The notes: a model not told the origin generated them from the letters alone. Shown: positions 14,764 through 56,534, counted from the first letter of the stretch. The stretch is DNA of 64,000 nt from Parcubacteria group bacterium (GCA_041659685.1 JBAZXV010000008.1:3332-67331); one strand, 5' to 3'. Program-made: numbers and translations.

Positions 14764-14786
14764 TTTTTATTTCTAAATATTTTTGA

Positions 14787-14814: not shown

Positions 14815-14815
14815 C

Positions 14816-15238
14816 TTATTTCGGAACCACTGTCACTGATCCCACTTCCTCCGGATTATCCGCGTGAATTATGAGGTTATTATTTGCATCTTTCTCAACT
14901 TTAATATCGCTTTCCGAATTGATTCCCCGATAATTCCAGGAAATTATCACAAGTATGAAAATTGCAACCAGCACAACAGCCCATTTGAGATTGAGAACGG
15001 CTTTTTTTTGCTCAAAGGCCGGGATATTTGCGTTTAGTGATTCCTGCCGGCGATAGTTCGCCTCCGCTACCCGATCGGTGTATTTTTCAACCGTTTCTTT
15101 CGTCGTAAACCACTTGCCGTCTTTTTTAAATCCCTCCAATTTTCCTTTTCTCACCAAAAGACTCAGATAGTCCGCGCTATAAGGAGAATTTTTACTGGCT
15201 TCTTGCAGTGTAATTAGATTTTTTTCTTCAGCTCCCAT
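14816..15238 (-). CDS. membrane-tethered DNA-binding protein: N-terminal excisionase/MerR-like HTH, one TM helix, short extracytoplasmic tail
   Basis: LITLQEASKNSPYSADYLSLLVRKGKLEGFKKDGKWFTTKETVEKY resembles an HTH_17-type motif, followed by a hydrophobic WAVVLVAIFILVIISW segment. The gene is co-oriented with and 52 nt upstream of the giant gene. Confidence 0.55.
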   Translation of the reverse strand: MGAEEKNLITLQEASKNSPYSADYLSLLVRKGKLEGFKKDGKWFTTKETVEKYTDRVAEANYRRQESLNANIPAFEQKKAVLNLKWAVVLVAIFILVIISWNYRGINSESDIKVEKDANNNLIIHADNPEEVGSVTVVPK

Positions 15239-23405: not shown

Positions 23406-25227
23406 CGGTGACGCTCTTTGCCAGATTGCGCGGCTTGTCTACATCAAGGCCTTTCAGAGCCGCGAAGTGATAGGCAAAAAGCTGAAGAGGGACTACCGAT
23501 AAAATCGGAGTCAGCATCTCAAGAGTTTTGGGTATATAAATAACATCGTCCGCGATTTTTTTCACTTCTTTGTCGCCCTGAGTGGTAATGGCTATCACTT
23601 TTCCGTTTCGGGCCTTTATTTCCTGCATGCCCGAAAAATTCTTTTCATAAACGCTGTCCTGCGGCATAACAAATATTGAAGGGAAATTTTTATCGATCAT
23701 GGCAATGGGACCATGTTTCATTTCACCGCTCGCAAACCCTTCGGCATGAACATAGCTCAATTCCTTGATCTTGATTGCGCCTTCAAGAGCTATCGGATAA
23801 TTATATTTTCTGCCAAGCAGAGAAAAATTATTCGCTTTGATATATTTTTTGGCTATTTTATTTATCTCTTCGCTTTGAGAAATAATTTTCTTTATTTTGG
23901 AAGGAATTTCGAGAAGCTCTTTGAGGATACGCTGGCCGGTAACCAAAGACATGCCCCTCTGGCGGCCCAAAAGGACCGTCATCAGGGCCATTATTGCAAG
24001 TTGTGAAGTAAATGCCTTCGTGGAAGCGACCGCTATTTCAGGACCGCTGTGATTGTATATTCCCGCGTCCGTTTCCCGGGCGATTGTCGATCCCACGGCG
24101 TTTACGATCCCCAGGGTCAAAGCTCCTTTTTCTTTTGCTTCTCTCACAGCCGCCAGAGTATCAGCTGTCTCTCCGGACTGGGAAACGGCGATAACTGCCG
24201 TATTCTTGTCAATAATCGGCTTTCGATAGCGGAATTCATGGGCGTAATCGACTTCCGTCGGGATCCCCGCATATTCCTCAAGCATGTATTCGCCGGTCAA
24301 AGCCGCCAGCCGCGCCGTTCCGCAAGCCACAATAACGAGCCGGTCAATTTCCCTCAGCCTGTCCTTCACAGATTCCAGGCCTCCCAGCTTGGCATTCCCC
24401 TTTTCCAAAATATACCTTCCTCTCACGCTGTTCATAAGAGACTCGGGCTGTTCCATGATTTCTTTCAGCATGAAATGGTCGTATCCTTTTTTCTCTGCCT
24501 CTTCAAGAGTCCAGTCGATCTTGGAAATTTTTTTATCAACTTTTTTCCGTTTAAAGTTCGTAACCTTGAAGTTGCCTTTCGTCACTTCGGCCATTTCCCC
24601 GTCTTCAAGATATATCACCTGGTCAGTATATCTCACAATCGGGGCCACGTCGGAAGCGATGATATATCCGTCGCTTGCCACCCCCAGAACCAACGGGCTT
24701 CCATTCCTTGCCAAAAAAATCCTCTCCGGTTCATTGCGGTCGATAATAGCCAGGCCGTAGGTTCCGTCGATATGCGCCAAAGTTCTCCAGATCGCTTCTT
24801 CGATCGGCACCTTTTTTTTGTATTCTTCGATAAGATGGGCCAAGACCTCCGTATCTGTTTCCGACAAAAACTTGTGTCCCATTTTTTCAAGATCCGTCTT
24901 CAGCTCCTTATAATTTTCAATTATCCCGTTATGGACAAGAAAAATATTTTTTCCGCAATCGCAGTGCGGATGAGCGTTTTTTTCGGAAGGTTTTCCGTGC
25001 GTTGCCCAACGGGTGTGGGCAATCCCGACGTGGCCCCTGATGTCCAGGCCGTTAATTTTATTTTCAAGTTCCACCACTTTCCCCACTGCCTTTTCCGTAA
25101 TAACCTTGTTCCCGTCAAGAACCGACAATCCGGCGCTGTCATAGCCCCGGTATTCCAACCTTTTAAGACCATCCATGAGAATTGGCATAGCCTCCTTTTT
25201 CCCAATATAACCGACAATTCCGCACAT
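23398..25227 (-). CDS. glmS: glutamine--fructose-6-phosphate aminotransferase
   Basis: MCGIVGY N-terminus, 609 aa, canonical C-terminus LAKSVTVE. Confidence 0.95.
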   Translation of the reverse strand: MCGIVGYIGKKEAMPILMDGLKRLEYRGYDSAGLSVLDGNKVITEKAVGKVVELENKINGLDIRGHVGIAHTRWATHGKPSEKNAHPHCDCGKNIFLVHNGIIENYKELKTDLEKMGHKFLSETDTEVLAHLIEEYKKKVPIEEAIWRTLAHIDGTYGLAIIDRNEPERIFLARNGSPLVLGVASDGYIIASDVAPIVRYTDQVIYLEDGEMAEVTKGNFKVTNFKRKKVDKKISKIDWTLEEAEKKGYDHFMLKEIMEQPESLMNSVRGRYILEKGNAKLGGLESVKDRLREIDRLVIVACGTARLAALTGEYMLEEYAGIPTEVDYAHEFRYRKPIIDKNTAVIAVSQSGETADTLAAVREAKEKGALTLGIVNAVGSTIARETDAGIYNHSGPEIAVASTKAFTSQLAIMALMTVLLGRQRGMSLVTGQRILKELLEIPSKIKKIISQSEEINKIAKKYIKANNFSLLGRKYNYPIALEGAIKIKELSYVHAEGFASGEMKHGPIAMIDKNFPSIFVMPQDSVYEKNFSGMQEIKARNGKVIAITTQGDKEVKKIADDVIYIPKTLEMLTPILSVVPLQLFAYHFAALKGLDVDKPRNLAKSVTVE

Positions 25228-28791: not shown

Positions 28792-31695
28792 TTAATGTGT
28801 GATTACGAAGTTTATCAATCTGTCTTTCACAAAAATAATTTTCCGTATATCTTTTCCTTCCGTGTATTTTATAATCTTTTGGCTCTCGAGCGCCAGCTTC
28901 TTCGCTTCCTCTTCCTTGACACCGGACGGGACCTTAATCTGGTCGCGAACCTTACCGTTCACTTGAATAATCAGCATTATTTCTTCGTCTTGGACGAGTT
29001 TCGGGTCATACTCCGGCCATTTTTCAAAAAATATAGATTCTTTGCGGCCGAGTTTTTCTTGCCATATCTCCTCCGCCATATGCGGTGCGAATGGGCTTAG
29101 TATAGTATTTAGCAGTTGGTAGCTGATAATCGGTAACTCTTTTTCTTTCTCCATTTCATTCACTAAAATCATCATCGCCGAAATCGCCGTATTGAACCGC
29201 AGATTATCGATATCTTCGGTAACTTTTTTTATAGTCTTATGCAATAATGAATTTATTTTCGTGTTTTGTGTTTTGGGGCCTGGGTTTTGTTTGGTATTTT
29301 GTGTGTTCGTGCTTTGTGTTTTTTCTTCCAATCGCCAGACCCGCTCCAAAAATCTTCTCAATCCTATAATACTGGATGTGTTCCATCTTTTCATATCCTC
29401 AAGCGGACCCATGAACATTTCATAAAGCCGAAGGACATCCGCGCCGTACTCTTTCACTATTTCATCCGGATTAATGACGTTTCCCAAAGACTTCGACATT
29501 TTCCGCCCGTCCTCGGCAATAACAATCCCTTGATGGCGAAGTTTTTTGAACGGCTCGTCGAAATCGATGCGGCCGTGCCTGTGAAGCGCTTTCGTGAAAA
29601 ATCGGGAATACAGCAAATGAAGAACCGTGTGTTCGGCGCCACCGATATAGAGGTCAACCGGCAGCCATTTTTCTATTTTTTCTTTTCCGGCAAATTCTTT
29701 TTCGTTCTTCGGATCAGAAAATCTGAAAAAATACCAGGATGAGCAGACGAATGTGTCCATCGTGTCGAGCTCCCGTTTTGCGGCGGCGCCGCATTTCGGA
29801 CAAACCGTATTCACAAAATCAGAATTTGTTCCAAGCGGCGATGTTCCTTTCGGGCGATAATCCTTCACCTCCGGAAGAAGAACGGGAAGATCTTTCTCGG
29901 AAACCGGCTGCCATCCGCACTTTTCGCAATAAATCATCGGTATCGGGCTTCCCCAATATCTTTGCCGCGAAATGAGCCAGTCGCGGATCTTATAGGTTGT
30001 TTTTCTTCCGCCAAAATTATTTTTTTCAAGCCAAACGGCCATTTCTTCGCGGGCTTTTTCCGATGAAAGACCGGAATATTTTCCCGAATTCACCAAAAAT
30101 CCCTTTTCGGTTAGCACTTTTCCTTCGAGATAAGAAAGATCGATCTTGTCCTTCTCTTCGCTCCTGTTTTTTATGAAATAATTTTTCAAATTTATGAGAA
30201 ATTTCCGGCTCAAAACAAGTGACTGATAATCGCCAAATGTTTTGATCTCTTCTTCGAAATCACAATCTTTTAATCCGTATTCCCAGGCGCAAGGGCCGAT
30301 ATCCACTTCGATTCCGTTTGAATTTTTGAAAATAAAGTTAGTCAATTTTTCGGTTAACTTTTTCTCTTTTATCTTTTCGAAGCCAAGCTTCTCGAGAACG
30401 GCTATCATCTTTTCCTGCGAAGCCGGATCTCTGGCGATCAGATCCAGATCGTCGTGCTCGCGATATACGATTCCCGCATAAAATGCATTGGCCAGGCCGC
30501 CAAGAAGCCAGAACTTTACATTTTCTTTTTGCGCTTCATTATATATTTCCTTCAGGGCCTCCAGAACCTTTATTGTCTTTTCATAAGATTCGAAATCAAG
30601 AGTGATGGATTGGCTTATCGGCAGATTGTATTTTTTTGCAAACTCAAAATCCCGCTCGTCGTGAGCCGGAACAGCCATTACTGCGCCGGTGCCGTAGGTT
30701 GAAAGAACATAATCGGCAACGAATATGGGAACTTCCTTGTCCGTGAAGGGATTAATTACCCTAAGGCCTTTGATTTCGACTCCCGTTTTTTCTTTCTGGA
30801 GTTCCGTTCGCTCGAGATCCGTTTTCCTTTTCGCTTCGTTAATATATTTTTCAACTTCCTTGTAATTTTCAATCCCATCTTTTATTTTTTCTATAATCGG
30901 ATGTTCTGGAGAGACAACTGCATAGGTCATGCCATATACAGTATCCAAACGAGTTGTATAGACCCTAATTCCTGATTCGTAATTCGTAATTCGTAATTCA
31001 AATTCCGCGCCGACGGACTTTCCAATCCAATTTTTTTGCGCGATTTTTGTCGATTGCGGCCAGTCAATCTTGTCGAGCCCCTCAATGAGTTCTTCCGCAA
31101 AATCGGTTATCTTGAAAAACCACTGCTCAAGATCTTTCTGGATCACTTCGTTCTTGCAGCGTTCGCAAATTCCGCCTTCCGCCTGCTCGTTGGCGAGAAC
31201 CGTCTGGCAGGATCCGCACCAGTTTACCTTCGCCTTTTTGCGGTAAGCAAGGCCGTTTTTATATAAAAACAAAAAGAACCATTGGGTCCATTTGTAATAT
31301 CCGGGATTCGAAGTGTCGATTTCCCGCTTCCAGTCATAAGACAGCCCAAGGCTCTTGATTTGTCCCGTAAAATTTTTGATATTTTGATGCGTACTCTTGT
31401 CGGGATGAACTCCGGTCTTGATGGCATAGTTTTCCGCCGGAAGGCCGAACGCGTCCCACCCCATCGGATGCAGAACATTTTTTCCTTTCATTCGCTGATA
31501 ACGGGAATATATGTCTGAGGCAGTGTATCCTTCCACGTGCCCGACATGGAGCCCGTCGCCCGAAGGATACGGAAACATATCAAGGCAATAGAATTTTTCC
31601 TTTTCCGACTTCTCGTCCGCCTCAAAAAGTTCCGGATGCTCCGCCCAGTATTTTTGCCACTTTCTCTCAATTTTCTTAGGATTATACTTAGGCAT
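28792..31695 (-). CDS. leuS: leucine--tRNA ligase
   Basis: 967 aa. PYPSGDGLHVGHVEGY (HIGH) and KMSKSLGNVI (KMSKS) motifs. Confidence 0.95.
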   Translation of the reverse strand: MPKYNPKKIERKWQKYWAEHPELFEADEKSEKEKFYCLDMFPYPSGDGLHVGHVEGYTASDIYSRYQRMKGKNVLHPMGWDAFGLPAENYAIKTGVHPDKSTHQNIKNFTGQIKSLGLSYDWKREIDTSNPGYYKWTQWFFLFLYKNGLAYRKKAKVNWCGSCQTVLANEQAEGGICERCKNEVIQKDLEQWFFKITDFAEELIEGLDKIDWPQSTKIAQKNWIGKSVGAEFELRITNYESGIRVYTTRLDTVYGMTYAVVSPEHPIIEKIKDGIENYKEVEKYINEAKRKTDLERTELQKEKTGVEIKGLRVINPFTDKEVPIFVADYVLSTYGTGAVMAVPAHDERDFEFAKKYNLPISQSITLDFESYEKTIKVLEALKEIYNEAQKENVKFWLLGGLANAFYAGIVYREHDDLDLIARDPASQEKMIAVLEKLGFEKIKEKKLTEKLTNFIFKNSNGIEVDIGPCAWEYGLKDCDFEEEIKTFGDYQSLVLSRKFLINLKNYFIKNRSEEKDKIDLSYLEGKVLTEKGFLVNSGKYSGLSSEKAREEMAVWLEKNNFGGRKTTYKIRDWLISRQRYWGSPIPMIYCEKCGWQPVSEKDLPVLLPEVKDYRPKGTSPLGTNSDFVNTVCPKCGAAAKRELDTMDTFVCSSWYFFRFSDPKNEKEFAGKEKIEKWLPVDLYIGGAEHTVLHLLYSRFFTKALHRHGRIDFDEPFKKLRHQGIVIAEDGRKMSKSLGNVINPDEIVKEYGADVLRLYEMFMGPLEDMKRWNTSSIIGLRRFLERVWRLEEKTQSTNTQNTKQNPGPKTQNTKINSLLHKTIKKVTEDIDNLRFNTAISAMMILVNEMEKEKELPIISYQLLNTILSPFAPHMAEEIWQEKLGRKESIFFEKWPEYDPKLVQDEEIMLIIQVNGKVRDQIKVPSGVKEEEAKKLALESQKIIKYTEGKDIRKIIFVKDRLINFVITH

Positions 31696-35848: not shown

Positions 35849-36322
35849 TTATTCAATTTTCATAAAATCAATACTCTCACTGTCGTCTATAAGCTTCGCG
35901 TAAACGAGAATTATTTCTTTTTCAGGATAATACTTTAAAATTTTTTCTTTCGCTTTTCGGAGTTCGCTTTCGTGGAATTTCTGCTCGGCTTCAAGGTCGC
36001 CCTTGAACTCTGCGCTTCCGCCGTAAGCTCCGCAGTCGGCATGATTCACGATAACGATTTTTTTGACGTGATGCAGATCGCACGGAACGCCAATGCACAT
36101 CATCGGGACATCGACTTCGTTCTGACAGTCGTTTATTGCTTTCGCGGATCCGGGCATTTTAGGAAAATCATACGATTTAATCCCGAGATCCTCATCGATA
36201 AACTTCATCGTCTCTTTCCAAAATCGGAAGTCTATGCAGGCAAGGACAACCGCGTCGCAACTGTGAATGTTTTTATAGTTGAATGGGGTTTTCATAAAAT
36301 ATCTTTTTTGTTCGAAGCGCAA
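35849..36322 (-). CDS. beta-carbonic-anhydrase-like protein (divergent)
   Basis: ACIDFRF (compare CxDxR) and NHADCGAYGG (compare HxxCG), the two zinc-ligand motifs of beta-carbonic anhydrases, with Phe replacing the usual Ser. Confidence 0.4.
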   Translation of the reverse strand: MRFEQKRYFMKTPFNYKNIHSCDAVVLACIDFRFWKETMKFIDEDLGIKSYDFPKMPGSAKAINDCQNEVDVPMMCIGVPCDLHHVKKIVIVNHADCGAYGGSAEFKGDLEAEQKFHESELRKAKEKILKYYPEKEIILVYAKLIDDSESIDFMKIE

Positions 36323-36425
36323 AGCTCAAATCTCAAAACCACAGAGAAAAACTTAAAACTTTTTATAATTTTTAATTTTAAGTTGTGGTTTTGAACTTTG
36401 CGTTTTGAATTTTGAGCTTAATTAC
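36310..36425. repeat. about 110-bp palindromic intergenic element, copy 1
   Basis: About 90% identical to 38800-38925 (aaaaccacag.g.aaaacttaaaacttttt ... gttgtggttttgaactttgcgttttga.ttttgag). Confidence 0.7.
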
Positions 36426-36853
36426 TCGATTTTCATTCCTCTTCTCGTCAGATGTTTTTTTGCCACTCGGATTCGCGCCAGATTTTTTTCAAGAATCGCC
36501 GCCGCGGTCGCGTATTCTGTTTCATCCATTCTTATCTTTTCCTCTTTTATTTTTTCCGCCCGCGCTTTCGCTTCTTCCGCCCGCTTCACATCGATCTCCT
36601 CCGCCCTTTCGGCTGTGTCGGCGAGAACCGTAATCTCATTTTTTTGCACTTCGATCATGCCGCCTGAGGCCGCTATCGCCACTTCTTCGTTTTCTCTTTT
36701 AGCGACAATTTCTCCGGCGCGAAGAACTGAAATCAGAGGAATATGATTCGGAAGCACGGTAATCTCCCCTTCTGATGTCGGAAGAGTAACTTGATCAACT
36801 TCAGACTCATAAACAGTACGTTCGGGAGTTACGATCTTAAATTTTATTTTCAT
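36422..36853 (-). CDS. atpC: ATP synthase F1 epsilon subunit
   Basis: IVTPERTVYESEVDQVTLPTSEGEITVLPNHIPLISVLRAGEI. Confidence 0.85.
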   Translation of the reverse strand: MKIKFKIVTPERTVYESEVDQVTLPTSEGEITVLPNHIPLISVLRAGEIVAKRENEEVAIAASGGMIEVQKNEITVLADTAERAEEIDVKRAEEAKARAEKIKEEKIRMDETEYATAAAILEKNLARIRVAKKHLTRRGMKIE

Positions 36854-37401: not shown

Positions 37402-38796
<1,395 letters not shown>

Positions 38797-38799
38797 TTA

Positions 38800-38925
38800 G
38801 CTCAAAGCGTAAAGCTTAAATTTCAAAACCACAGCGCAAAACTTAAAACTTTTTGAAATAATTTTGAGCTTTTAGTTGTGGTTTTGAACTTTGCGTTTTG
38901 AGTTTTGAGTTTAACTTAAATTATT
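38800..38925. repeat. about 110-bp palindromic intergenic element, copy 2
   Basis: See 36310-36425. The two copies bracket atpD-GxxExxY-atpC in direct orientation. Confidence 0.7.
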
Positions 38926-38955
38926 AAAAAATTCAATATAATTGGTAAAATAAAA

Positions 38956-39918
38956 CTAATTTTCCAAGGCAGCACGACCGGCGCTGATTTCCGCAATTTC
39001 CTGCGTGATGCCGGCTTGGCGAATTTGGTTATATATAAGCGTTAGGTTGTCCGCCATATCCCTGGCTGCATCCGTGGCGTTTCGCATCGCCACCATCCGC
39101 GCCGATTCCTTTGAAGCGTTTGACTCCAAAATGGCATGATATATCTGCATCTCAACAAGCCGCGGCAAAATTTCCGTGAGCACTGTTTTTGCATCCGGTT
39201 CAACCTTATATTCCATCGGCGGTTCATTGAGGCCGTATTCTTTCGCCAAAACATCCATATCAGCCAGCTGTTTTTCGATATCCACTTTCGATATCGGAAG
39301 AAGCTGGCGAAACTTCGGCTGTTGGACAACAGCTGAAATATAATCCATATAAGCAATCACGACTTTGTCATACTTTTTGGCCCGATACTCGTCCATAATG
39401 AGCCTGGCAAGCCCTCGCACATCTTCAGTTTGCGGAAGATAAGTCAGCTCATCAAATGTGGCAATGATGTTCTTGCCGATTTTCCGAATAAAGTTGGCGC
39501 CTTTTTTTCCGACAGTCACAAAATCAATCTCGATCTTATCATCCGGAATGCTTGATTCAATTCTTTTTGATCCAGTTCTGTTCACCTTGAGCTGGCCCGG
39601 ATTATTCACCTGCTCAGCGACTCTTCTGAGAAGCTGGGAGTTAAATCCGCCGCAAAGTCCCCGGTTCGAAGTAATGACAACCATAAGAATCTTTTTCACT
39701 TCGCGCGCTTCAAGGAGATCGATTGGATAATTTTCAAAAGCGCGGGCCATATTCGTCAGCACGCCCCAGGCGCTGTGGGCATACGGGCGGATTGCAAGAA
39801 CACTGGCCACTGTCCGCCGCATCTTCGAAGCCGCCACCATTTCCATGGCGCGTGTGATTTTTTTCGTATTGTTCACCGATTTTATTCGGCGGCGTATTTC
39901 TCGAGATCCTTGAGCCAT
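38956..39918 (-). CDS. atpG: ATP synthase F1 gamma subunit
   Basis: 320 aa. RRRIKSVNNTKKITRAMEMVAASKMR N-terminus. Confidence 0.9.
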   Translation of the reverse strand: MAQGSREIRRRIKSVNNTKKITRAMEMVAASKMRRTVASVLAIRPYAHSAWGVLTNMARAFENYPIDLLEAREVKKILMVVITSNRGLCGGFNSQLLRRVAEQVNNPGQLKVNRTGSKRIESSIPDDKIEIDFVTVGKKGANFIRKIGKNIIATFDELTYLPQTEDVRGLARLIMDEYRAKKYDKVVIAYMDYISAVVQQPKFRQLLPISKVDIEKQLADMDVLAKEYGLNEPPMEYKVEPDAKTVLTEILPRLVEMQIYHAILESNASKESARMVAMRNATDAARDMADNLTLIYNQIRQAGITQEIAEISAGRAALEN

Positions 39919-39964: not shown

Positions 39965-41482
39965 TTAGGCATTCCCATACACTTCCTTATATTCCTCAAT
40001 CGCCTTTTTAAGCGATTTTTCAACGTCTTCCGTCAATTCTTTCTTCTCCTTTACGAGCGCCAGCACATCACTTTTCATTTCTTTCATGTATTTATGAAAT
40101 TCTTCTTCCCATTTTTGAACATTCGCTACCGGAGTATCATCCAAATATCCGTTCGTAAGGGCATAGAGAATCGCCACTTGATTTTCAACCGGCATCGGAA
40201 CATATTGGTCCTGCTTTAAGACTTCAACTGTCCGCTGTCCTCTCTCTATTTGCTTTCGGGTTGATTCGTCGAGGTCAGATCCGAACTGGGCAAAGGCTTC
40301 GAGTTCGCGGAACTGAGCAAGATCGAGACGCAACTTTCCGGCTACCTTTTTCATCGCCTTGATCTGCGCGGCCGACCCCACGCGGGAAACAGAGAGACCG
40401 ACATTGAGAGCCGGGCGGATACCCTTATAAAACAAGTCTGATTCAAGATAAATCTGCCCGTCAGTGATGGATATTACGTTCGTTGGAATGTAGGCCGAAA
40501 CATCGCCCGCCTGCGTTTCAATGATCGGAAGGGCGGTAATGGATCCTCCGCCGAAATCTTTTGAGAGCTTGGCGCTTCGTTCAAGAAGCCTTGAATGAAG
40601 ATAGAAAATATCTCCCGGATAAGCTTCGCGTCCCGGCGGACGTTTGAGAAGAAGCGAAACCTGCCGATAAGCCCAGGCGTGTTTTGAAAGATCGTCATAA
40701 ATGACCAGCACGTCTTTTCCCTGGTCCATGAAATATTCTCCAATCGCGCAACCGGAATAAGGCGCGATATAAGAGAGTGATGCCGGATCCGACGCTCCCG
40801 CAACCACCACAATCGTATGCTCCATGGCTTCATTTTTTTCAAGCTCGGAAACAATGCGCGCCACTTTCGATTCCTTCTGTCCGATTGCGACGTATATGCA
40901 GATTACATTCTCGCCCTTTTGGTTAATTATCGCATCAATCGCAACTGCCGTTTTTCCCGTTTGACGGTCGCCGATAATAAGCTCTCGCTGGCCCCGTCCG
41001 ATCGGAATTGCCGAATCAATGGCTTTTATTCCGGTTTGGAGCGGCTGTTTTACGGATTCACGAGCGATTACACCCGGCGCGATTTTTTCAATCGGGTAAA
41101 ATTTTTCGGTTTTTATCTCTCCTTTTCCGTCAATGGCCTGGCCGAGCGGATCCACCACTCTTCCAATCATTTTCTCTCCGGCCGGCACGGACAAAATTTT
41201 TCCGGTTGAACGCACGGTGTCGCCTTCCTTTATTTTTTCATATTCTCCAAGAATCATGGCGCCGACTTGGTCTTCTTCAAGATTAAGAGCCACGCCCAGG
41301 ATCGACCCTTGAGGAGAAGGAAATTCCAGCATTTCACTCGCCATGACGTCCGAAAGGCCTGAAATGCGGGCAATTCCGTCGCCGACTTCGATCACCTGGC
41401 CGACTTTTTCAGATTTGGCTTCCGCCTTGAAGCCGGAGATTTGTTTTTTAAGAGTCTCTACTATTAAGTCTTTTTGGTTCAT
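39965..41482 (-). CDS. atpA: ATP synthase F1 alpha subunit
   Basis: [10 protein letters not shown]-loop, 505 aa. Confidence 0.97.
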
Positions 41483-41634
41483 AATGATTTGTAAAAATTA
41501 ATTTTCAATTACCAATTTCCAATTATCAATCAATTCTCAATTCATCAATGATCAATTTTCAAACGGCATAATAGTTATAATTGAAAATTGAGTCATTGAA
41601 AATTCATTGTAAATTGATCATTGATTATTGAAAA

Positions 41635-42036
41635 TTATTTCGCCAAAATTTTCTTCAACTCCCCCAGCCGCCCCGCGATGCTCCCGTCAATCACTTCATC
41701 CCCGACTTTCATTATGATTCCGCCCTTAATGTTCACGTCGATTATGTTTCTTAAAACCACTTCCTTTGCTGAATATTTATTTTTCAAAAAAATTTTTGCC
41801 TTATGCTCCAGGGACTCGTCAGCTTTCTCACGGGTTATAATTTCGGCCTCGATAATCCCGTTTTTTTTGTTATATATATCATTAAACTGATTGATTATTT
41901 TTTCCGCCAATTTTATCTTTCTTGATTTGTTCAGATAACGCGCGAAATCAGCCACGGATTTTTCAATTTCCGTTTTTGGCTTTCCTTCCGTCATCGCATA
42001 CAGCGTTTCGGCATATTGTTTTGAAGTGATGCGCAT
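41635..42036 (-). CDS. atpH: ATP synthase delta (OSCP) subunit, short form
   Basis: 133 aa in the delta position of the operon. C-terminus VIDGSIAGRLGELKKIL. Confidence 0.7.
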   Translation of the reverse strand: MRITSKQYAETLYAMTEGKPKTEIEKSVADFARYLNKSRKIKLAEKIINQFNDIYNKKNGIIEAEIITREKADESLEHKAKIFLKNKYSAKEVVLRNIIDVNIKGGIIMKVGDEVIDGSIAGRLGELKKILAK

Positions 42037-42641: not shown

Positions 42642-43007
<366 letters not shown>

Positions 43008-43049
43008 TCACTAAATATTAATCATTGATTAATGTTCAATGTTCAGTGA

Positions 43050-43832
43050 TTAATGACTTTCTGTTGCCGCCATTTTAAGAAACACGAGAGTCAGCATTGA
43101 AAATACCAGAGCCTGCACGAATCCGACGAACAATTCCAAAAACAAGAACGGGAGCGGGACGAAATACGGCACAAGGAACAACATCACCATAAGGAGAATT
43201 TCTCCGGCAAAAATATTTCCAAAAAGCCGGAAGGAAAAGGAAATAATTTTAGCAACTTCGGAAACAAGCTCCAGGGCTCCAACGAAAGTTCCGACAAAAT
43301 ACGGCTTGTGCAGGGGGCTCACAAAGAATTTCCCGGCATATTTGGCAAATCCGATGGCCGCTATCCCGATAATCTGCGACCCGACAACACTCACGATTGC
43401 AAGTGCAAGGGTCATATTAAGATCAGCTGATCCGCTTCGGATAAAGGGAACGAGTTCGTTTTCTCCGTGAATCTTTTTAAAAATTCCAATTGTTCCGAGA
43501 CCCGGCAAAACTTCCACCCAATTTGAAAGTATGACAAAAATGAATATGGTCGCGACGAGCGGAAAAAATATTTTTGACTGCTTGCGATCCTGCGTAACGC
43601 TGTCAATCATATCCAGAAGAGCCTCCAATACGGCTTCCGCTGCATTTTGAAATCCCCTTGGCACCAAGCGAATGCGCGATTTGAGCAAAAACGACGCCAC
43701 AATAACCAGCAAGCTGATGCAAAGAGTCACCAAAATAGTGTTCGTCACTGGAAATGATCCTATATGGAAAATGGGTTCTGCAGCAATTGAAATATTCATA
43801 TCTAAACAGGCATCGGCTGCCCTTTTAGCCAA
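43050..43832 (-). CDS. atpB: ATP synthase F0 a subunit
   Basis: RLFGNIFAGEILL contains the conserved Arg. Confidence 0.9.
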   Translation of the reverse strand: MAKRAADACLDMNISIAAEPIFHIGSFPVTNTILVTLCISLLVIVASFLLKSRIRLVPRGFQNAAEAVLEALLDMIDSVTQDRKQSKIFFPLVATIFIFVILSNWVEVLPGLGTIGIFKKIHGENELVPFIRSGSADLNMTLALAIVSVVGSQIIGIAAIGFAKYAGKFFVSPLHKPYFVGTFVGALELVSEVAKIISFSFRLFGNIFAGEILLMVMLFLVPYFVPLPFLFLELFVGFVQALVFSMLTLVFLKMAATESH

Positions 43833-45087: not shown

Positions 45088-46554
45088 TTAGTGTTTAATT
45101 CTTGGGAAAAGTATTTCTGATTTCTTAGTTTCGAGAGCTTCTTTGATTTTTTCGGAAGTTTCCGGCATAAAAAAACACATATCGTCGGCGATAACCGTAA
45201 GCGCATGGACAAGATGCTCCATAACGCTCTCAAATTTGCCAGTGTCTTTTTTCGCAAGCTCCCAAGGCTTATATTCTTCAATATATTTGTCGAGTACGCG
45301 AATAAAGGTCCAGCTGTCTTTCAGGGCAAAATCCAATCTCATTTCTTTCATGTGTCTTGCCAATATCTCATCTTCGCCTCCAAACTCATTGAAATGACTC
45401 AGCTCGAAGGATTTATCTATTTTTTCATATAACTTTACTATGCGGCTCACCAGATTCCCCAAACCGTTTGCCAAGTCCGCGTTGTATTTTTCAACCATAC
45501 GCCCCATTGTCATATCCACATCCTCGCCGAAAGTTCCGGCGCTCATAAGAAGATATCTCGTTCCATCCGTTCCGAATTTTTCGAGCATCTCATCTATGGT
45601 TATTCCATTGCCGAGCGTTTTGCTCATTTTTCTTCCGCCCGAAAGGATGTGCCCGTGGACATAAAGCATTTTTGGGAGCTCTATTCCAAGATGCATAAGC
45701 ATCGCCGGCCAGATTGTGGCATGCACCCGCAAAATATCTTTTCCAATCAGCTGCACGTCCGCCGGCCAAAACCTGAGATTCGACCTTGAGGAATCCGCCG
45801 ATGAGGCGGAGAGAAAGGTCGAACCTTGGATAGATCCGCCCCACCCCAAGCCCGTCAGATAATACAAAAAAGCGTCCGCCCAGACATAGGTCGTGTACTG
45901 CGGATCAAAAGGCAAAGGTATTCCCCATGAGACGTTTTTTCTGGATATGGAAACGTCCTTCAGCGGCTGGTTCCTGAGAAATGATAGTATTTCTTTTTTG
46001 TATTTTTCCGGATTGATTTTGAGTTCGTCTTTTTCTATTTTATCAATAAGCTCTTCCTGAAAAACGCCCAACTTAAGAAGATAGCATTCTTCTTTTATCT
46101 TTTCCAAAACCGTGTCGTGATCCGGACAACGTCCGTTTACCAACTCGTTTTCACTGCGAAATTGCTCGCACCCGACGCAATACATTCCTTCATATTCGCC
46201 TTTATATATCGCGCCCCGCTCAAAAAGAGCCTGCAGGACTTTTTGGACGGCGGATTTATGTTTTTCGTCGGTCGTCCGGATAAAATTATTGTATTTGATA
46301 TTAAGTTTTTCCCAATAGCCTTTGAACTCTTGAGAAACTTCGTCCACGAATTTTTGCGGATCTTCGCCGGCTTCTTCGGCTTTTTTCTGAATTTTGAGGC
46401 CGTGTTCGTCCGTTCCGGTCAGGAAAAAAACGTCATCTCCCCGCTCGCGATGGAACCGCGCCAAAACGTCGGCCGCAATGGTCGTGTACGCGTGGCCAAT
46501 ATGCGGCTTCGCGTTAACGTAATATATCGGGGTAGTGACAAAAAATTTCTTCAT
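45088..46554 (-). CDS. metG: methionine--tRNA ligase, short form
   Basis: PIYYVNAKPHIGHAYT (HIGH) and KMSKTLGNGI (KMSKS) motifs. Confidence 0.95.
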   Translation of the reverse strand: MKKFFVTTPIYYVNAKPHIGHAYTTIAADVLARFHRERGDDVFFLTGTDEHGLKIQKKAEEAGEDPQKFVDEVSQEFKGYWEKLNIKYNNFIRTTDEKHKSAVQKVLQALFERGAIYKGEYEGMYCVGCEQFRSENELVNGRCPDHDTVLEKIKEECYLLKLGVFQEELIDKIEKDELKINPEKYKKEILSFLRNQPLKDVSISRKNVSWGIPLPFDPQYTTYVWADAFLYYLTGLGWGGSIQGSTFLSASSADSSRSNLRFWPADVQLIGKDILRVHATIWPAMLMHLGIELPKMLYVHGHILSGGRKMSKTLGNGITIDEMLEKFGTDGTRYLLMSAGTFGEDVDMTMGRMVEKYNADLANGLGNLVSRIVKLYEKIDKSFELSHFNEFGGEDEILARHMKEMRLDFALKDSWTFIRVLDKYIEEYKPWELAKKDTGKFESVMEHLVHALTVIADDMCFFMPETSEKIKEALETKKSEILFPRIKH

Positions 46555-48537: not shown

Positions 48538-49562
48538 GTGGGTATTTCTTCCTTCTTTGTTGTCAGATCATTCACCACTTCTCCGATTACCGTCGCAAGA
48601 GGAACAGCAATAATCACTCCCAAAACGCCGCCTAATTTTGCGCCGATAAGGAGAGCCAGAATCACAATTATGGGGTTCAGCCCGACGGCTTTTTTCATAA
48701 TAAGCGGGGTCAGGACATAACCTTCAAGCTGCTGAACGGCCGCAAACAGACCGAGAACCAGAACGCCTGTCAGAGGGCCATGGAGAAAACTGATAAGCGT
48801 TGCGATAATCGCCGAGATTATCGGTCCGACATAAGGAATAATTTCCAGTATCCCGGCAATAAGCGCTAAAATCAAAGCGTAAGGAGCTTTAATCGCCAGC
48901 AATCCCAGATAATCAAGTAAAAATACCAGAAGCATAAGAAGCAGCTGTCCCTGGAGCCAGCGGCCCATTTTATGCTGGATTCTTTCAACCAGGCCGGCTA
49001 CATATTCCTGATGGTCCTTTGGAAAAACCGATTTGAAAAATTTCTTGCTTCCCGCTTCCTGAACGCTCATGTAAAAAGCAATGGAAAGGACGATGATAAA
49101 ATCAAAAATTCCGCCAAGAAAGGATATTGTTCCGCTGAAAAGATTGGTTCCCGCATCGGAAATCCTTCCGGCGGCGTTTGAGAAGAAATTATTGATGTTT
49201 TGCTCCAAACTATGAGTGGCGGCAAAATCCTGGACAACTTTGAAATATCCCGAGAGCTGTTCGATCAATTTCGGAAGGCTTTTTCCCAGGCTTTCCGTTT
49301 CCGCCGTGATAGGGGGAATCAAAAGAGAAACCGCAAGAACAAACAAGGATAAAAAAATGACATACACAAAGAAAACAGTAAGGGAACGGGGAACGTTCTT
49401 TTTTTGAAACCAGTCCACCACAGGGTCGATGGCGCTTACTATAATGATCGCCACAAAAACCAGCGCTAAAACATCGCGGACAAGAAAGAGAAACCAGAGG
49501 AGGAGCAGGATAAATATAGTTCTTAGAATTGTTCCGGATGAAATTTCGATGGTTCGATTCAT
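48534..49562 (-). CDS. AI-2E/PerM-like (UPF0118) family membrane transporter
   Basis: 342-aa polytopic membrane protein with the topology and length of that family. Confidence 0.5.
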   Translation of the reverse strand: MNRTIEISSGTILRTIFILLLLWFLFLVRDVLALVFVAIIIVSAIDPVVDWFQKKNVPRSLTVFFVYVIFLSLFVLAVSLLIPPITAETESLGKSLPKLIEQLSGYFKVVQDFAATHSLEQNINNFFSNAAGRISDAGTNLFSGTISFLGGIFDFIIVLSIAFYMSVQEAGSKKFFKSVFPKDHQEYVAGLVERIQHKMGRWLQGQLLLMLLVFLLDYLGLLAIKAPYALILALIAGILEIIPYVGPIISAIIATLISFLHGPLTGVLVLGLFAAVQQLEGYVLTPLIMKKAVGLNPIIVILALLIGAKLGGVLGVIIAVPLATVIGEVVNDLTTKKEEIPT

Positions 49563-49638
49563 GACTGTGATTTATGAATTATGATTTACGATTTATGAAT
49601 GTTTTGAAAAATAATATTCCTGAATCTTAATTCATAAA

Positions 49639-50913
49639 TCAAATAGCTAATGTTTTTTTCAAAAATTTATCGTCTTTTATCGGCCCTATCACCGCCAAAT
49701 TGAGTCCGCCGTCAATAAAAATATTCTTAGCCACTCTTATAATATCATCTGCCGAAACTTTATCAACCCTCGCAAGAATTTCTTCCGGCCTTTCAATTTT
49801 CTTTTTCATCAGTTCCTGGCCGGCTAAAAATCCGGCAATGTCGTCTGAAGACTCGAGCGAAAGAGCCGTTTTCCCCCGAAAATTATCTTTGGCTTTCTGA
49901 AGTTCCTTCGGGCTGACTTTTTCGTCTCGGATTTTTCTTATTTCATTCATTATTGTCCTGACTGTCATTTCAACTTTGGATTGATCAGTGTCCACACCCG
50001 CCCGGACAGCCAGATATCCGCTGCCGGTATAACTTTCGTATCCGGAGTTGATATAATAAGCCAGACCCAGCCGTTCGCGGACGGAAAGGAACAGCCGGCT
50101 GCTCATCGTTCCGCCGAGAATGTTGGAAAGAATAGAGAGGGCGAACCTGTCCGGATGAAACATATTATAAGCCCGAACGCCGATCACCAGATGGACCTGA
50201 TCAGTCTTCTTCGCCTTTATTTTTATCTGCGGCTTCGATTGTTTTTCGATGGTTTTCGGCTTTTCCCCGGATTTCTTTCCCCTCATCCCCAAAAATTTCT
50301 TTTCAATTTCGCGAATCGTGCGTTTTTCGTCAATATTTCCGGCAACGCACACGACTGTGTTCGGCGCGGTATAATTTTCCCGGAGATATCTCAAAAAATC
50401 GGCGCGTCTGAAACGCCTGATATTTTCTTTCGTTCCGATAGTATCCCATCCGGCCGGCTGGTCGCCGTACATAAGCCCTTCAAAAACTTCCATTGCCTGG
50501 ATCGTCGGAGTGTCTTCGTACATATTGATCTCCTGAAGTATTACCCCTCTCTCTTTCTCTATCTCTTTCTCATCAATCTTTGAATTGAGATATATGTCAG
50601 AAATAACATCGAGCGCCAAATCAAAATGCTTCGCGTCAACTTTCGCAAAATAAGCCGTCTGTTCCTTTCCTGTGAAAGCGTTATATTCGCCGCCGACTGC
50701 ATCGAGAGCTCCTGAAATGTCTTCTGTCCTCGGCCGCTTCTTCGTCCCCTTGAAAAACATGTGCTCAAGAAAATGCGAAATGCCGTTCATTTCTTTGGTC
50801 TCGCATATGGATCCCACGCCGGCAGTGATAATCACTGTCACCGTGTTCGTGTCCTTCATCGGCGCCGTCACCACCCGTAATCCATTCTTCAAGATTGTTT
50901 TTTTGAAATTCAT
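49639..50913 (-). CDS. M16-family zinc peptidase (pitrilysin-like)
   Basis: Inverted zinc motif HFLEHM (HxxEH) near the N-terminus. Confidence 0.85.
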   Translation of the reverse strand: MNFKKTILKNGLRVVTAPMKDTNTVTVIITAGVGSICETKEMNGISHFLEHMFFKGTKKRPRTEDISGALDAVGGEYNAFTGKEQTAYFAKVDAKHFDLALDVISDIYLNSKIDEKEIEKERGVILQEINMYEDTPTIQAMEVFEGLMYGDQPAGWDTIGTKENIRRFRRADFLRYLRENYTAPNTVVCVAGNIDEKRTIREIEKKFLGMRGKKSGEKPKTIEKQSKPQIKIKAKKTDQVHLVIGVRAYNMFHPDRFALSILSNILGGTMSSRLFLSVRERLGLAYYINSGYESYTGSGYLAVRAGVDTDQSKVEMTVRTIMNEIRKIRDEKVSPKELQKAKDNFRGKTALSLESSDDIAGFLAGQELMKKKIERPEEILARVDKVSADDIIRVAKNIFIDGGLNLAVIGPIKDDKFLKKTLAI

Positions 50914-53178: not shown

Positions 53179-54552
53179 TTATTCTTCAAAATTTTTCTTT
53201 AGATACTCCGCCAGGTCTTCAATTTTCACTCGTTCCTGTTCCATCGTGTCCCGGTTGCGGACGGTGACCGCCTGGTCGTTCAATGTTTCAAAATCCACCG
53301 TCACGCAAAAGGGCGTTCCGATTTCATCCTGCCGGCGGTATCTTTTCCCGATCGACTGCGTTTCGTCATATTCGCACATGAATCTCGTCTTAAGATCGTC
53401 AAATATCTTCTTTGCCGGACCGGCTAATTCTTCTTTTTTCGAAAGCGGCAGGACGGCCACGTGGACCGGCGCGATTTTTTTCGGAAATTTCATCACCACT
53501 CTTGTCTCCCCCTTTACTTCCTCTTCGCTATAAGCCGAAAGGAGCGCCGCCAAGACACTTCTTTCCACCCCGAACGTCGGCTCAAGAACATGCGGAACAT
53601 AGCGCTTGTTTTTTTCCGCGTCGAAATATTCAAGCTTTTGCCCCGACATTTTACCGTGCTGGCTGAGATCGAAATCCCCCCGATGAGCGATTCCGTAAAG
53701 TTCTTTTACGCCGAAAGGAAAATTATACATCGTGTCAATGGTTTTTTTCGAATAGTGGGAGAGCTTTTCTTTCGGATGCTCATAGCGGCTGATATTTTCT
53801 TTTTTAAGCCCGATTTCAAGCGCGAATTCTTCCTGAAGATCAAGCCACTTTTCAAAAAGCGTTTGCCAGTCGGCATCGGGTTCGATAAAATACTCAATTT
53901 CCATCTGCTCAAATTCGCGGAGCCGGAAAATGAAATTACCGGCCACAATTTCATTGCGGAAAGCTTTCCCGATTTGCGCGATTCCGAAAGGGACCTTGAC
54001 GCGCATCGAATCAAGGATATTTTTAAAATCAACAAAAATGGCTCCCGCGGTTTCCGGACGAAGATATACCGTCCCTTCGAAGCCGTTCATTTCCGTTTGA
54101 AACATCATATTGAAATTCCGGGCATCGGTCCAGTCTGACTTTCCACATTCCGGACATTTGGCCTTGAGAGAGCGCAAAGTTTTTGTCATGTCTTCAAGCC
54201 GGCCCTCCATATCTTCTCCGGTCAGCTCTTCAACCAGGTGATCGGCCCGGAATCTTTTCTTGCAATTCTTACAATCCACCATGGCGTCGTTGAACCCGGC
54301 GACATGGCCTGAGGCCTCCCAAAGCCTGGGGTGAAGAAGTATCGGACCGTCGATTCCGACAATATCTTCGCGAGCGTGCACAAATTTTTTCCACCAGAGC
54401 CTTTTTATATTATTTTTCAGTTCCGCGCCGTACGGCCCGAAGGAATAGGAATTGGCAAATCCTCCGTAAATTTCAGAGCCGGGAAAAATAAATCCGCGCC
54501 TTTTCGAGAGGGAAACAATTTTGTCCATCAGTTTTTCATTTTTTTCCGCCAT
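53179..54552 (-). CDS. glyQS: glycine--tRNA ligase (alpha2-type GlyQS)
   Basis: RRGFIFPGSEIYGGFANSYSFGPYGAELKNNIKRLWW N-terminus, 457 aa. Confidence 0.95.
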   Translation of the reverse strand: MAEKNEKLMDKIVSLSKRRGFIFPGSEIYGGFANSYSFGPYGAELKNNIKRLWWKKFVHAREDIVGIDGPILLHPRLWEASGHVAGFNDAMVDCKNCKKRFRADHLVEELTGEDMEGRLEDMTKTLRSLKAKCPECGKSDWTDARNFNMMFQTEMNGFEGTVYLRPETAGAIFVDFKNILDSMRVKVPFGIAQIGKAFRNEIVAGNFIFRLREFEQMEIEYFIEPDADWQTLFEKWLDLQEEFALEIGLKKENISRYEHPKEKLSHYSKKTIDTMYNFPFGVKELYGIAHRGDFDLSQHGKMSGQKLEYFDAEKNKRYVPHVLEPTFGVERSVLAALLSAYSEEEVKGETRVVMKFPKKIAPVHVAVLPLSKKEELAGPAKKIFDDLKTRFMCEYDETQSIGKRYRRQDEIGTPFCVTVDFETLNDQAVTVRNRDTMEQERVKIEDLAEYLKKNFEE

Positions 54553-54635
54553 ATATTTATTTAGAAAAATTATTAAATAAAACCGCGACCCCCGGCAGTA
54601 ATGCCTTAATTTTTCACTTTATCTTTTAGTTTAAT

Positions 54636-54688
54636 AAAAAAGCCCGTCCTAAACGCCTAACGAAAAACATTAGACATTCGGGACGAGC
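54636..54688 (-). terminator. intrinsic terminator in the glyQS leader (GCUCGUCC...GGACGGGC + U6)
   Basis: Read 5'-3' on the minus strand, ggctcgtcc precedes ggacgggcttttttatt. It lies 84 nt upstream of the glyQS ATG. Confidence 0.5.
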
Positions 54689-55017
54689 CATATCAAGTTA
54701 AAAATGAAAAGTTCAAAACTAAAAATGACAATTTAAACTTCTAAAATTTTTAATGTCAAAATGATTTTTGATTCAATTAATTTTGACATTTTACATTGTC
54801 ACTTTGCATTTTGATTTTTCAATCTTGCATTTCCTATGGTCCGCGGTTCCACCCGAGTTCTCCCGGAAATTATTGGCCGGTGCCAAAAAAATCCAACGAG
54901 CGCCTCTTTATTCATTTTTCATTATTTCCGTTAAAAACAGCTTCTTTATCTATTTTTTCCGGATTAAGGCTGCCAAACCTTATTTATTATAGTAACGGGT
55001 ATCACGTTTATTGTCAA
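54640..55017 (-). promoter_or_regulatory. candidate T-box riboswitch leader of glyQS with a promoter (TTGACA-N17-TACTAT at 54986-55017)
   Basis: The minus strand at 54833-54860 reads aacucGGGUGGAACCGCGGacc, a 14-nt match to the T-box consensus GGGUGGNACCGCGG. N is A, complementary to the U73 discriminator of tRNA-Gly. GGCA (Gly codon plus purine) occurs upstream. Confidence 0.35.
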
Positions 55018-55049: not shown

Positions 55050-55796
55050 CTAGCGGCGATTGCCGCGAAGTTCAAATAAATTATGGATGATTTCGCATTG
55101 ATTGACCGCCGCATTCAAGAAACCCAAAATATCTTTGTCGACTTTTTCTTTTTCAAGAAAAATCATGAACGCCCTGCGGTTCGAAGTGCTCGAGCTCTCC
55201 GAAGAGAGAACGCAGTACCCTTTGTCGTTGCAAAGTTTTTTGTCCGCTGCCAGTTCTGTGATTTCTCGGTTTCCTATCTTAAAATCATGAGTCCTTACCG
55301 AAGGCGATGCCTTGGCCCAGTATTCCGAAATGGTCTGAAGGCCTTCTGTGTTCATAATGCGGATCGCCATCCAGTCTTTCTTGCTGATAGTCATCGCCAT
55401 CCGGAGTATTTCATCGACATATTCTTTCATTTCCCGCTTGCTGGCCGGCGCTTTTAGTTTTTGAAGGAATGATTTTATGAGAGACATTTGCACGTTTATC
55501 TTTCCCAAATAGGCAAAAGTTTCAAGGAGCTCCTTCTCTCTTTTCCGGTATTCTGTCTCCAATTTTTTTATTTCCCCTTCCCGCATGCTGACCGTTCTTT
55601 CATAAAGCCTGAATATTTTCCAGGCGAGCGAGACTTGAATAAAAAGCAGGACCGCTTCAAACAATTCCTCCGATAAAAAAGAAAACCCGCTTTTGATAAT
55701 AAGGGGCGTAAAGATTATCGTGACCACTAAAATAAGAAAGACCAAGAGAAATGTATTCCTAAGCCTTTCAACTTTAGGGCGATTTATAAGAGCCAT
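55050..55796 (-). CDS. hypothetical membrane protein (2 N-terminal TM plus cytoplasmic domain)
   Basis: 248-aa ORF. Confidence 0.5.
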   Translation of the reverse strand: MALINRPKVERLRNTFLLVFLILVVTIIFTPLIIKSGFSFLSEELFEAVLLFIQVSLAWKIFRLYERTVSMREGEIKKLETEYRKREKELLETFAYLGKINVQMSLIKSFLQKLKAPASKREMKEYVDEILRMAMTISKKDWMAIRIMNTEGLQTISEYWAKASPSVRTHDFKIGNREITELAADKKLCNDKGYCVLSSESSSTSNRRAFMIFLEKEKVDKDILGFLNAAVNQCEIIHNLFELRGNRR

Positions 55797-55832: not shown

Positions 55833-56534
55833 TTATTTGAATTTGAAGCTGCCCACGATTTTATCGGCTAAAACGCACCTGGCATCCTTTTTTTGCCCGG
55901 AGCAATCATCTGTCTTTGTATACGCGTATACCGACTCGTCTTTTTCAGTAATTTTTTCTCCGGCCGCCTCGCAAAGCGTCTCATTGCCCTTTTGGCATCC
56001 GTTTTCCATCTCTTCCCACTCCTCAGAGCTGAATTTCCGGATAGTGAGAAAGGTCTTGTTTATTTTGTCCAAATCACGCGATTTTTTCTCTCCTCCGTCC
56101 GAAAGATAAAGCTGGAGATACTGGTTGGAAAGCGCGTCATCCACCGGACTCTTTACAAAGCCCGCTTTGTATTTCCAGTCCCCGATTTGAGACGGAATTC
56201 GAAGCGTAAAATCAAAACTCGGGTCGTTCAGATCCTGATTCGCGCCAGCAGAAGTTTTGTTGTTTCCGTTGGCGGACGCGACATAAAATGCGCTGTTGTC
56301 CCTGATTATTATATTTTGAGAGCTGATGAGAGAAATTAAAAAAATGAAGATGGCCAATTCCAAAACGGCAGTCAGAATAATAAGAGAAACACTGAACCTT
56401 AAGTTCGCTCTTTCTTTTCCCGATTTTTTGGAATTAAAAGATTCGGCGATAGCGCTCTTTGAAGCGCTTTTTTTCGCCGCTTTGAAATTTTTTCCAAGCA
56501 GGGATTTTTTTTCTTTTTTTGTCCTCCTGGTCAT
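55833..56534 (-). CDS. hypothetical membrane-anchored protein with Cys-containing extracytoplasmic domain
   Basis: 233 aa. Lys-rich N-terminus, one TM segment, four Cys in the C-terminal half. Confidence 0.5.
   Translation of the reverse strand: MTRRTKKEKKSLLGKNFKAAKKSASKSAIAESFNSKKSGKERANLRFSVSLIILTAVLELAIFIFLISLISSQNIIIRDNSAFYVASANGNNKTSAGANQDLNDPSFDFTLRIPSQIGDWKYKAGFVKSPVDDALSNQYLQLYLSDGGEKKSRDLDKINKTFLTIRKFSSEEWEEMENGCQKGNETLCEAAGEKITEKDESVYAYTKTDDCSGQKKDARCVLADKIVGSFKFK

Follow-up and report, generated by a model that had tools for sequence, protein, structure and literature searches.

A probable glycine T-box attenuator without Stem I platform or Stem II, enlarged by an AT-rich palindromic block, ahead of glyS in a Parcubacteria-group bacterium

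The stretch of DNA analysed here (the window, 64,000 nucleotides) belongs to a bacterium of the Parcubacteria group (CPR/Patescibacteria). The gene of interest, glyS, is read from the minus strand after a spacer of 497 nt, which runs on that strand from an ORF at 55796-55050 to the GlyRS gene and contains a promoter-like site, an exact T-box core and an intrinsic terminator. The glyS leader proper occupies about 54983-54636. The features, in the order of transcription, are the following:

54989-55017, minus strand: sigma-70-type promoter, with -35 box TTGACA (55017-55012), a 17-nt spacer and -10 box TACTAT (54994-54989)
54965-54982, minus strand: P1, the putative specifier hairpin, UAAGG[UUUGGCAG]CCUUA, with GGC at 54974-54972 and the following purine, A, at 54971
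54928-54962, minus strand: P2, a predicted linker hairpin, CCG-G-AAAAA ... UUUUU-AA-CGG, with an A-rich 16-nt loop
54860-54905, minus strand: purine box AGGCG (RRRNG, 54905-54901) and elongated Stem III (54900-54860), followed by AA (54859-54858); fold of -16.0 kcal/mol
54841-54856, minus strand: T-box core, made of the A1 5' strand UCGGG (54856-54852), the 7-nt bulge UGGAACC (54851-54845) and the A2 5' strand GCGG (54844-54841)
54689-54840, minus strand: AT-rich palindromic block of 152 nt (21.7% GC) in the A2 apical loop
54678-54686, minus strand: antiterminator 3' strands, A2 UCGU (54686-54683) and A1 CCCGA (54682-54678), which double as the terminator 5' strand
54636-54689, minus strand: intrinsic terminator, a long hairpin of -30.2 kcal/mol with its 5' strand from 54689, its 3' strand GGACGGGC at 54649-54642 and a U tract at 54641-54636
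53179-54552, minus strand: glyS, glycine–tRNA ligase of the dimeric glyQS type (NF003211, 642 bits, cut-off 312)

The two ORFs upstream of the leader, at 55050-55796 (248 aa, hence ORF248) and 55833-56534 (233 aa, ORF233), both on the minus strand, are conserved hypotheticals without a match in Pfam or NCBIfam. They are syntenic with the leader throughout the clade. For ORF248 there are 87 homologs, each about 245-253 aa long, in MAGs labelled Parcubacteria or Moranbacteria and in unlabelled metagenome contigs. The sequence-only reading had thought it worthwhile to look for further T-boxes ahead of aminoacyl-tRNA synthetase genes; within the window this led nowhere, as no T-box core lies upstream of the genes for LeuRS, MetRS or GlmS (28792-31695, 45088-46554 and 23398-25227, all on the minus strand), and Rfam models applied to the whole window at gathering score returned no glmS ribozyme and no RNA family of any kind.

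The promoter proposed at first sight, TTGACA-N17-TACTAT, is indeed present, 135 nt upstream of the T-box motif. The pattern TTGACA-17-TAnnnT is kept in 8 of the 10 members of the family described below, with 5-8 nt between the end of the -10 box and P1, the first hairpin. A promoter-like site was searched for between the terminator and the start codon of glyS and none was seen, so that expression of glyS appears to need read-through. As for the T-box core, GGGTGGAACCGCG occurs as a single exact copy in the 64-kb window, on the minus strand at 54854-54842 (54854-54841 for the 14-mer that includes the next G); the motif had been recognized correctly and placed 3 nt away, at 54838-54851. In the form (A)GGGUGGNACCGCG the T-box sequence is exact at 54854-54842 and invariant in the 10 family members, and its variable base is A, giving the UGGA bulge as predicted. 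Taken alone such a motif is weakly significant, being matched in 13 of 100 shuffles of 64 kb when one mismatch is allowed. Chance is ruled out by the position and strand of the core, by the presence of a complementary 3' strand, and by the match to a family covariance model whose training left the window out.

That 3' strand, CUCGUCCCGA at 54687-54678, matches the 5' strand of the T-box exactly (A2 GCGG/UCGU, A1 UCGGG/CCCGA). It serves in addition as 5' strand for the terminator, an arrangement which is conserved and covaries in 10/10 members. The terminator noticed about 150 nt from the T-box is real, a stable stem followed by a U tract, and it seems displaced because the 152-nt block in the A2 apical loop parts the two antiterminator strands. 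When the terminator 3' strand is left out, the unconstrained fold is the canonical antiterminator, with the block as A2 arm (-45.0 kcal/mol); once the leader is complete, the terminator is favoured, at -64.7 kcal/mol versus -55.0 kcal/mol when A1 is forced. Upstream of the core, the RRRNG-Stem III-AA arrangement, a motif defined in PMC7778990, is found in all family members. P2 is predicted in the window and in the leaders L201 and L202, which together form a sub-clade, with differing sequences, and is absent from L103, L135, L193, L003 and L099.

The family comprises the window and nine relatives (L003, L099, L103, L135, L136, L193, L084, L201 and L202), recovered by a GlyRS-based genome scan, a DNA-pattern scan of metagenomes and look-ups via the lineage-specific ORF248. 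When the window GlyRS was looked up for exact matches in the contig index there were none; the look-up by ORF248 succeeded. All nine are leaders upstream of glyQS-type GlyRS genes with the architecture of the window, L003, which carries no insert, being collinear with it apart from the block. All ten members fold to the same antiterminator, with 6, 6, 8, 9, 10, 10, 23, 47, 91 and 153 nt between the A2 strands, a range that makes the A2 tip an expansion hot spot. In the short members an A-rich linker of 20-28 nt follows P1; in the window, L201 and L202 this linker is longer (up to 55 nt) and furnished with P2. The distal platform of Stem I (AG bulge plus distal loop) is absent, the linkers of 20-55 nt holding no such motifs; absent too is any Stem II or pseudoknot, as the linkers of the short members have no helices. 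In these short members the distance from aptamer to antiterminator is about 110 nt. The order U32-ORF233-ORF248-leader-glyS is preserved while flanking proteins are 42-53% identical, which argues for vertical inheritance. Most CPR GlyRS loci lack the element. Relatives at 63-69% ORF248 identity (L203-L205, L208 and L209) have no T-box before glyS, and in L203-L205 (3247-4687) a FBPase_3 gene is inserted between ORF248 and glyS. These relatives point to repeated loss of the T-box within the clade; the element is hence dispensable there, which counts against the main reading given below.

A few observations made along the way concern the surroundings of such leaders. In L003 the interval from the U32 peptidase gene to the leader holds a tRNA-Arg(CCG) gene (1986-2059), which immediately precedes the glyS T-box promoter. 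In a Falkowbacteria MAG, a DUF3800-II RNA (RF02961, 68.9 bits) is found near the GlyRS locus (L002 329-398, minus strand). Metagenome matches to AACTCRGGTGGAACCGCG (L081-L200, e.g. L082, L086, L087, L115, L116 and L156) are mostly thrS leaders of GC-rich soil or gut organisms; a UGGA-type core with the same A1 strand is therefore common to Gly and Thr T-boxes of distant lineages.

The Rfam model of the T-box leader, RF00230, has a gathering score of 93 bits. The window has no match at that score and the leader alone has none at E<=10. The relatives offer a natural insert series. Six leaders without an A2 insert (L136, L103, L003, L193, L135 and L099) score 36-45 bits, with E values of 1e-4 to 1e-6, and L201, likewise without insert, scores 40.2 bits; L084, with an insert of 90 nt, falls to 25.1 bits; L202, with 46 nt, and L206, which is the window over again with its 152 nt, give no match. 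The series shows that the A2 insert is what hides the element from RF00230. All relatives stay below 93 bits, with Stem I unpaired in the RF00230 alignments, and even a canonical-looking thrS leader from the gut reaches only 82 bits. The missing Rfam match in the window and the scores of its relatives below the gathering score nevertheless count against the T-box reading. A missing RF00230 score had been named at the outset as one ground for refutation; discarding the element for that would have been wrong. A dedicated covariance model (R1), trained on the six uninserted members from metagenomes and genomes with the window left out, finds the window at 54986-54839 with 30.4 bits (E=4e-5 in 396 kb), in an alignment that ends at the block, and finds L084 at 51.9 bits; among about 38 other CPR GlyRS loci it has no match.

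Covariation was assessed on two alignments. In the model-fitted one, 91% of cells are paired (38-56% with slid partners), ten pairs are changed on both sides (5.6+-1.6 in shuffles) and the covariation score is 0.337 (0.203+-0.027 in shuffles, 0/500 of which reach the score). MAFFT alignments scrambled the variable hairpins and the model-fitted alignment cuts the window row at the insert, so that helices were also tabulated by hand. In that table 265 of 267 cells are paired, a fraction inflated by the choice of helices sequence by sequence, and 25 columns are changed on both sides versus 15.4+-1.9 (0/2000 shuffles). Covariation supports all helices; Stem III covaries strongly and the terminator does so in all members. 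The cleanest compensatory event changes A1 from UCGGG/CCCGA to UCAGG/CCUGA in L003 and L099. These figures are those of a family of 10 members only, several of them close kin, with helices in part defined by hand.

We give a probability of roughly 0.78 to the reading of the glyS leader as a glycine-specific T-box riboswitch acting by transcription attenuation. The anatomy of the leader, its alternative folds, its homology to nine leaders, the covariation, the synteny and the origin of the block, set out below, are matters of observation. The initial suggestion of a glycine T-box ahead of glyS is thereby upheld, with the sub-threshold RF00230 matches and the match to the family model on the same side.

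The block deserves a closer look. Nowhere is the window richer in AT (21.7% GC in the block versus 45.3% in the whole), and the block folds into a long imperfect hairpin (z -2.5) whose ends, CCAUA/UAUGG, pair and lengthen A2 by five pairs. It is no assembly artefact, since L206, a second and independent assembly of this organism, shows 100% identity over 3.4 kb, block included. It is recent: L201, the closest relative for which DNA was at hand (77%), has the loop AAA in its place, and a relative at 81% has a spacer 170 nt shorter than that of the window, as judged from gene spacing, the sole basis on which the three closest relatives (P0002-P0004) were compared. Independent hairpin inserts at the same site (46 nt in L202, at about 3520-3565 of the locus; 90 nt in L084; 152 nt in the window) are mutually unrelated in sequence. 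That of L084 (locus region 1684-1891) opens with AUUUCGUCC, a degenerate repetition of the antiterminator 3' strand, which hints at local duplication.

Used as a query in blastn and nhmmer, the block gave E values of about 0.05 and looked single-copy by first impression. A comparison of AT-rich islands with one another revealed a dispersed AT-rich palindromic repeat of intergenic DNA. Two of its palindromic copies, of about 134 nt, at 36288-36447 and 38762-38991, are 84% identical over 134 nt (E 1e-37) and lie on either side of atpD; half of a further copy is found at 14774-14817, and TGTCATTTTTMGYTTTGAACTT is the core common to them. Terminator-like hairpins and a MITE/REP-like element are candidate natures of the repeat. 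Further AT-rich intergenic islands with strong self-complementarity, at 41425-41667, 42954-43085 and 49535-49694, are unlike the repeat in sequence. Both arms of the block match the repeat motif and the copy at 14774-14817, with scores of 46 and 53 versus 22+-3 in dinucleotide shuffles (0/1000); the matched span of about 134 nt covers block positions of about 13-146 (about 54828-54695), and the relationship is partial. Neither a target-site duplication nor terminal inverted repeats could be defined at the block. The A2 tip had probably been extended already when a copy of the palindromic repeat inserted into its loop, the host A2 helix surviving because the block folds on itself.

Such an event may also be read as the end of a regulator: the repeat would have disabled the antiterminator of a T-box now decaying, with termination constitutive or bypassed and glyS expressed otherwise. 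The block is unique to this host, the 77% relative having its 3-nt loop and the 81% relative its shorter spacer; the T-box is wholly lost in the relatives at 63-69%; and stem Sa, 42 nt long, lowered read-through when grafted into A2 of the G. kaustophilus element (PMC9177973). We nonetheless consider decay unlikely. Helices, bulge, purine box and terminator are all intact, and the ends of the block extend A2 by their pairing; L202 and L084 tolerate inserts there too, of 46 and 90 nt; the reading frame of GlyRS is intact and no promoter-like site separates the terminator from the ATG. A dead antiterminator before a strong terminator should be harmful, if glyS is the sole GlyRS gene.

The attenuator reading also asks how the identity of the tRNA is recognized. 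In the family P1 is a stem of 4-6 bp with a loop of 7-9 nt in which U-GGC is always present, usually with A next. The GGC is invariant in 10/10 members, the only invariant loop triplet across the ten leaders, on stems that vary by G-C/A-U exchanges, e.g. UGAGGA[UUGGCAG]UCCUCA in L135 and GUGAAG[CUUUGGCAA]CUUUGC in L136. Loops of 7 nt read N-U-GGC-A-R, the pattern of an anticodon loop. In L003 and L099 a K-turn-like GA motif sits beneath P1. The GGCA noticed at the outset in the presumed Stem I region is present, at 54974-54971 and again at 54881-54878. There is no conventional Stem I: GGC and its A lie in the terminal loop of a hairpin of 4-6 bp at the 5' end of the transcript, and no internal loop with an S-turn is found. 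An alignment of the GGCAGC of the window with the GGCAGC at the 5' end of L003, considered as a specifier, was rejected, the L003 copy being part of the K-turn stem and unconserved in the family. No tRNA-Gly gene by which a GCC anticodon and U73 could be confirmed was found in the window or in the 45 loci searched, a point against the main reading.

The thrS leader L092 is built after the same minimal design, with AAACAG[CUACCAA]CUGUUU right after the promoter: in an equivalent 7-nt loop it displays the Thr codon ACC followed by A. Its T-box core is at 2862-2879 on the minus strand of the locus, a second small hairpin follows the first, and about 400 nt separate its terminator from the ThrRS start.

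We infer from this family pattern that GGC and its A in the P1 loop act as the glycine specifier. One may argue instead that only the discriminator (Stem III and antiterminator) is a true T-box and that P1 specifies nothing, with identity read elsewhere or nowhere and GGC a mere lineage signature. The canonical internal Specifier Loop with its S-turn is indeed missing; some registers in the MFE folds of P1 bury part of the GGC, which counts against the main reading as well; a second GGC lies close by in the window and in L003; and the case for codon switching rests on one non-glycine example, L092. We hold this view to be improbable, since GGC stays the one invariant loop triplet on ten differing stems, usually with its purine, in loops resembling anticodon loops, the short leaders contain no further conserved GGC, and ACC-A occupies the same place in the thrS leader.

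Downstream of the terminator the window has about 58 additional nt before the glyS start codon (within 54553-54635), missing from L201 and L202. They contain a small GC hairpin, GGCAUUACUGCC (region 54600-54582), and a segment, GGUCGCGGUU at 54591-54582, whose complement is found in the T-box core, AACCGCG(G)ACC, the two being paired in the MFE fold of the whole leader. This segment and the raw 150-nt distance from T-box to terminator are what could be said for the translational or otherwise atypical control first envisaged, with a distal hairpin unrelated to the T-box, which we regard as very improbable because the canonical antiterminator/terminator pair is intact with its strands merely set apart by the block, the shared strand is conserved and covarying in 10/10 members as in canonical T-boxes, a U tract follows the stem, and the relatives have only about 25 nt from terminator to ATG with a core-complementary segment in none.

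The attenuator reading invites comparison with known systems. As in the canonical glyQS T-box of Bacillales (RF00230; B. subtilis, G. kaustophilus, O. iheyensis), the T-box sequence has UGGA in its bulge, the helices A1 and A2 are there, purines and AA border Stem III, an intrinsic terminator overlaps, the putative specifier GGC has A after it, Stem II is missing and the leader precedes GlyRS; the K-turn-like GA motif of L003 and L099 adds to the likeness. Glycyl T-boxes without Stem II are documented (PMC11404447). Unlike the Bacillales element, the family has no distal half of Stem I, the AG bulge and distal loop forming the platform which stacks on the tRNA elbow; its codon is in a terminal hairpin loop instead of an internal Specifier Loop; and its short members, with about 110 nt from aptamer to antiterminator, score 36-45 bits where the gathering score is 93. 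Naturally shortened Stem I without the elbow-binding motif is also the mark of the ileS T-boxes of Actinobacteria whose Stem I is intermediate or 'ultrashort' (Sherwood, Grundy and Henkin 2015, summarised in the review PMC7583486); those T-boxes are translational, sequester the SD sequence and depend on a Stem II with S-turn and a IIA/B pseudoknot, whereas the present family has an intrinsic terminator and no Stem II.

The closest likeness to the A2 block is stem Sa of the staphylococcal glyS T-box, a lineage-specific hairpin in A2 of a glycyl T-box which had also escaped bioinformatic detection (PMC9177973, PMC4574755). Stem Sa has 42 nt, is conserved in all staphylococci and has a demonstrated role in tRNA isoacceptor selectivity (PMC9177973, PMC4574755). 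The block differs, having 152 nt and 22% GC, deriving from a dispersed repeat, and facing unrelated inserts or none in close relatives.

Two published observations count against the main reading. Transcriptional T-boxes 'generally require' the motif that binds the elbow, and forms in which Stem I is truncated are translational and dependent on Stem II (PMC7583486). In B. subtilis glyQS, removal of the distal motif cripples co-transcriptional capture of the tRNA, where timing is critical (PMC13001445). Translational T-boxes, too, lack the Stem I platform (PMC7583486), so that the platform defines a class and not the T-box family. T-boxes are known mainly from Firmicutes, Actinobacteria, Chloroflexi and Deinococcus-Thermus, with few in Proteobacteria (PMC2494555, TBDB preprint). 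In the literature searched, no paper pairs a T-box with CPR or Patescibacteria, nor are these mentioned in the TBDB text or supplements, and the combination of a terminator with neither platform nor Stem II was not found. Judged by its sequence, this T-box-type attenuator of glyS, having neither, is a new architectural variant.

How would such a leader work? We infer binding of the tRNA, the regulatory outcome and the working state of the inserted version by analogy with characterised T-boxes. Transcription would start about 6 nt past the -10 box and P1 would be made first, its loop GGC and A pairing with the GCC anticodon of tRNA-Gly. Complementary anticodon loops bind strongly to each other, as in tRNA-tRNA anticodon complexes. 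The linker, Stem III (between purine box and AA) and the T-box sequence would come next. Once CUCGUCCCGA emerges, the antiterminator (A1, the UGGAACC bulge and A2) becomes possible, a fold that the energy calculations recover. Bacterial tRNA-Gly carries U73, and the free 3' end of the uncharged tRNA, UCCA, would be bound by UGGA in the bulge, a contact holding the antiterminator and letting the polymerase proceed into glyS. Where uncharged tRNA is wanting, the same 3' strand would join the terminator, which the energies show to be the more stable, and transcription would stop. As there is neither Stem I platform nor Stem II, the tRNA would be gripped by its anticodon and 3' end only.

In the window the block would fold into an arm on A2, leaving the antiterminator closable, while adding about 150 nt of transcription between its strands. 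This gap of 152 nt could impair timely folding, a point against the main reading. In all, about 200 extra nt are present in the window, distributed among linker, Stem III and A2. We offer the hypothesis, which draws on the timing data from B. subtilis glyQS (PMC13001445), that a T-box without the platform may gain time for recruiting its tRNA when more sequence is transcribed between P1 and the decision point.

A broader proposal, which we advance tentatively and at somewhat short of even odds, is that a natural minimal class of transcriptional T-boxes exists in Parcubacteria (CPR). With about 110 nt from aptamer to antiterminator, it would present its codon in an N-U-GGC-A-R hairpin for a loop-loop contact with the anticodon and would need neither elbow contact nor Stem II. 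The tips of Stem III and A2 would absorb large hairpin expansions, repeats included, maybe lengthening tRNA recruitment before the termination decision.

The leader described here would extend T-box regulation to the Candidate Phyla Radiation, where it is undocumented in the literature searched. It further illustrates that one hairpin insertion in the A2 loop is enough to hide a genuine T-box from RF00230, so that surveys under-count such elements, and a palindromic genomic repeat in the tip of a riboswitch hairpin suggests a route by which expansion segments of regulatory RNAs can arise. If functional, a family without platform or Stem II would set a lower limit for a tRNA-sensing attenuator, and would provide a compact scaffold for structural and engineering work.
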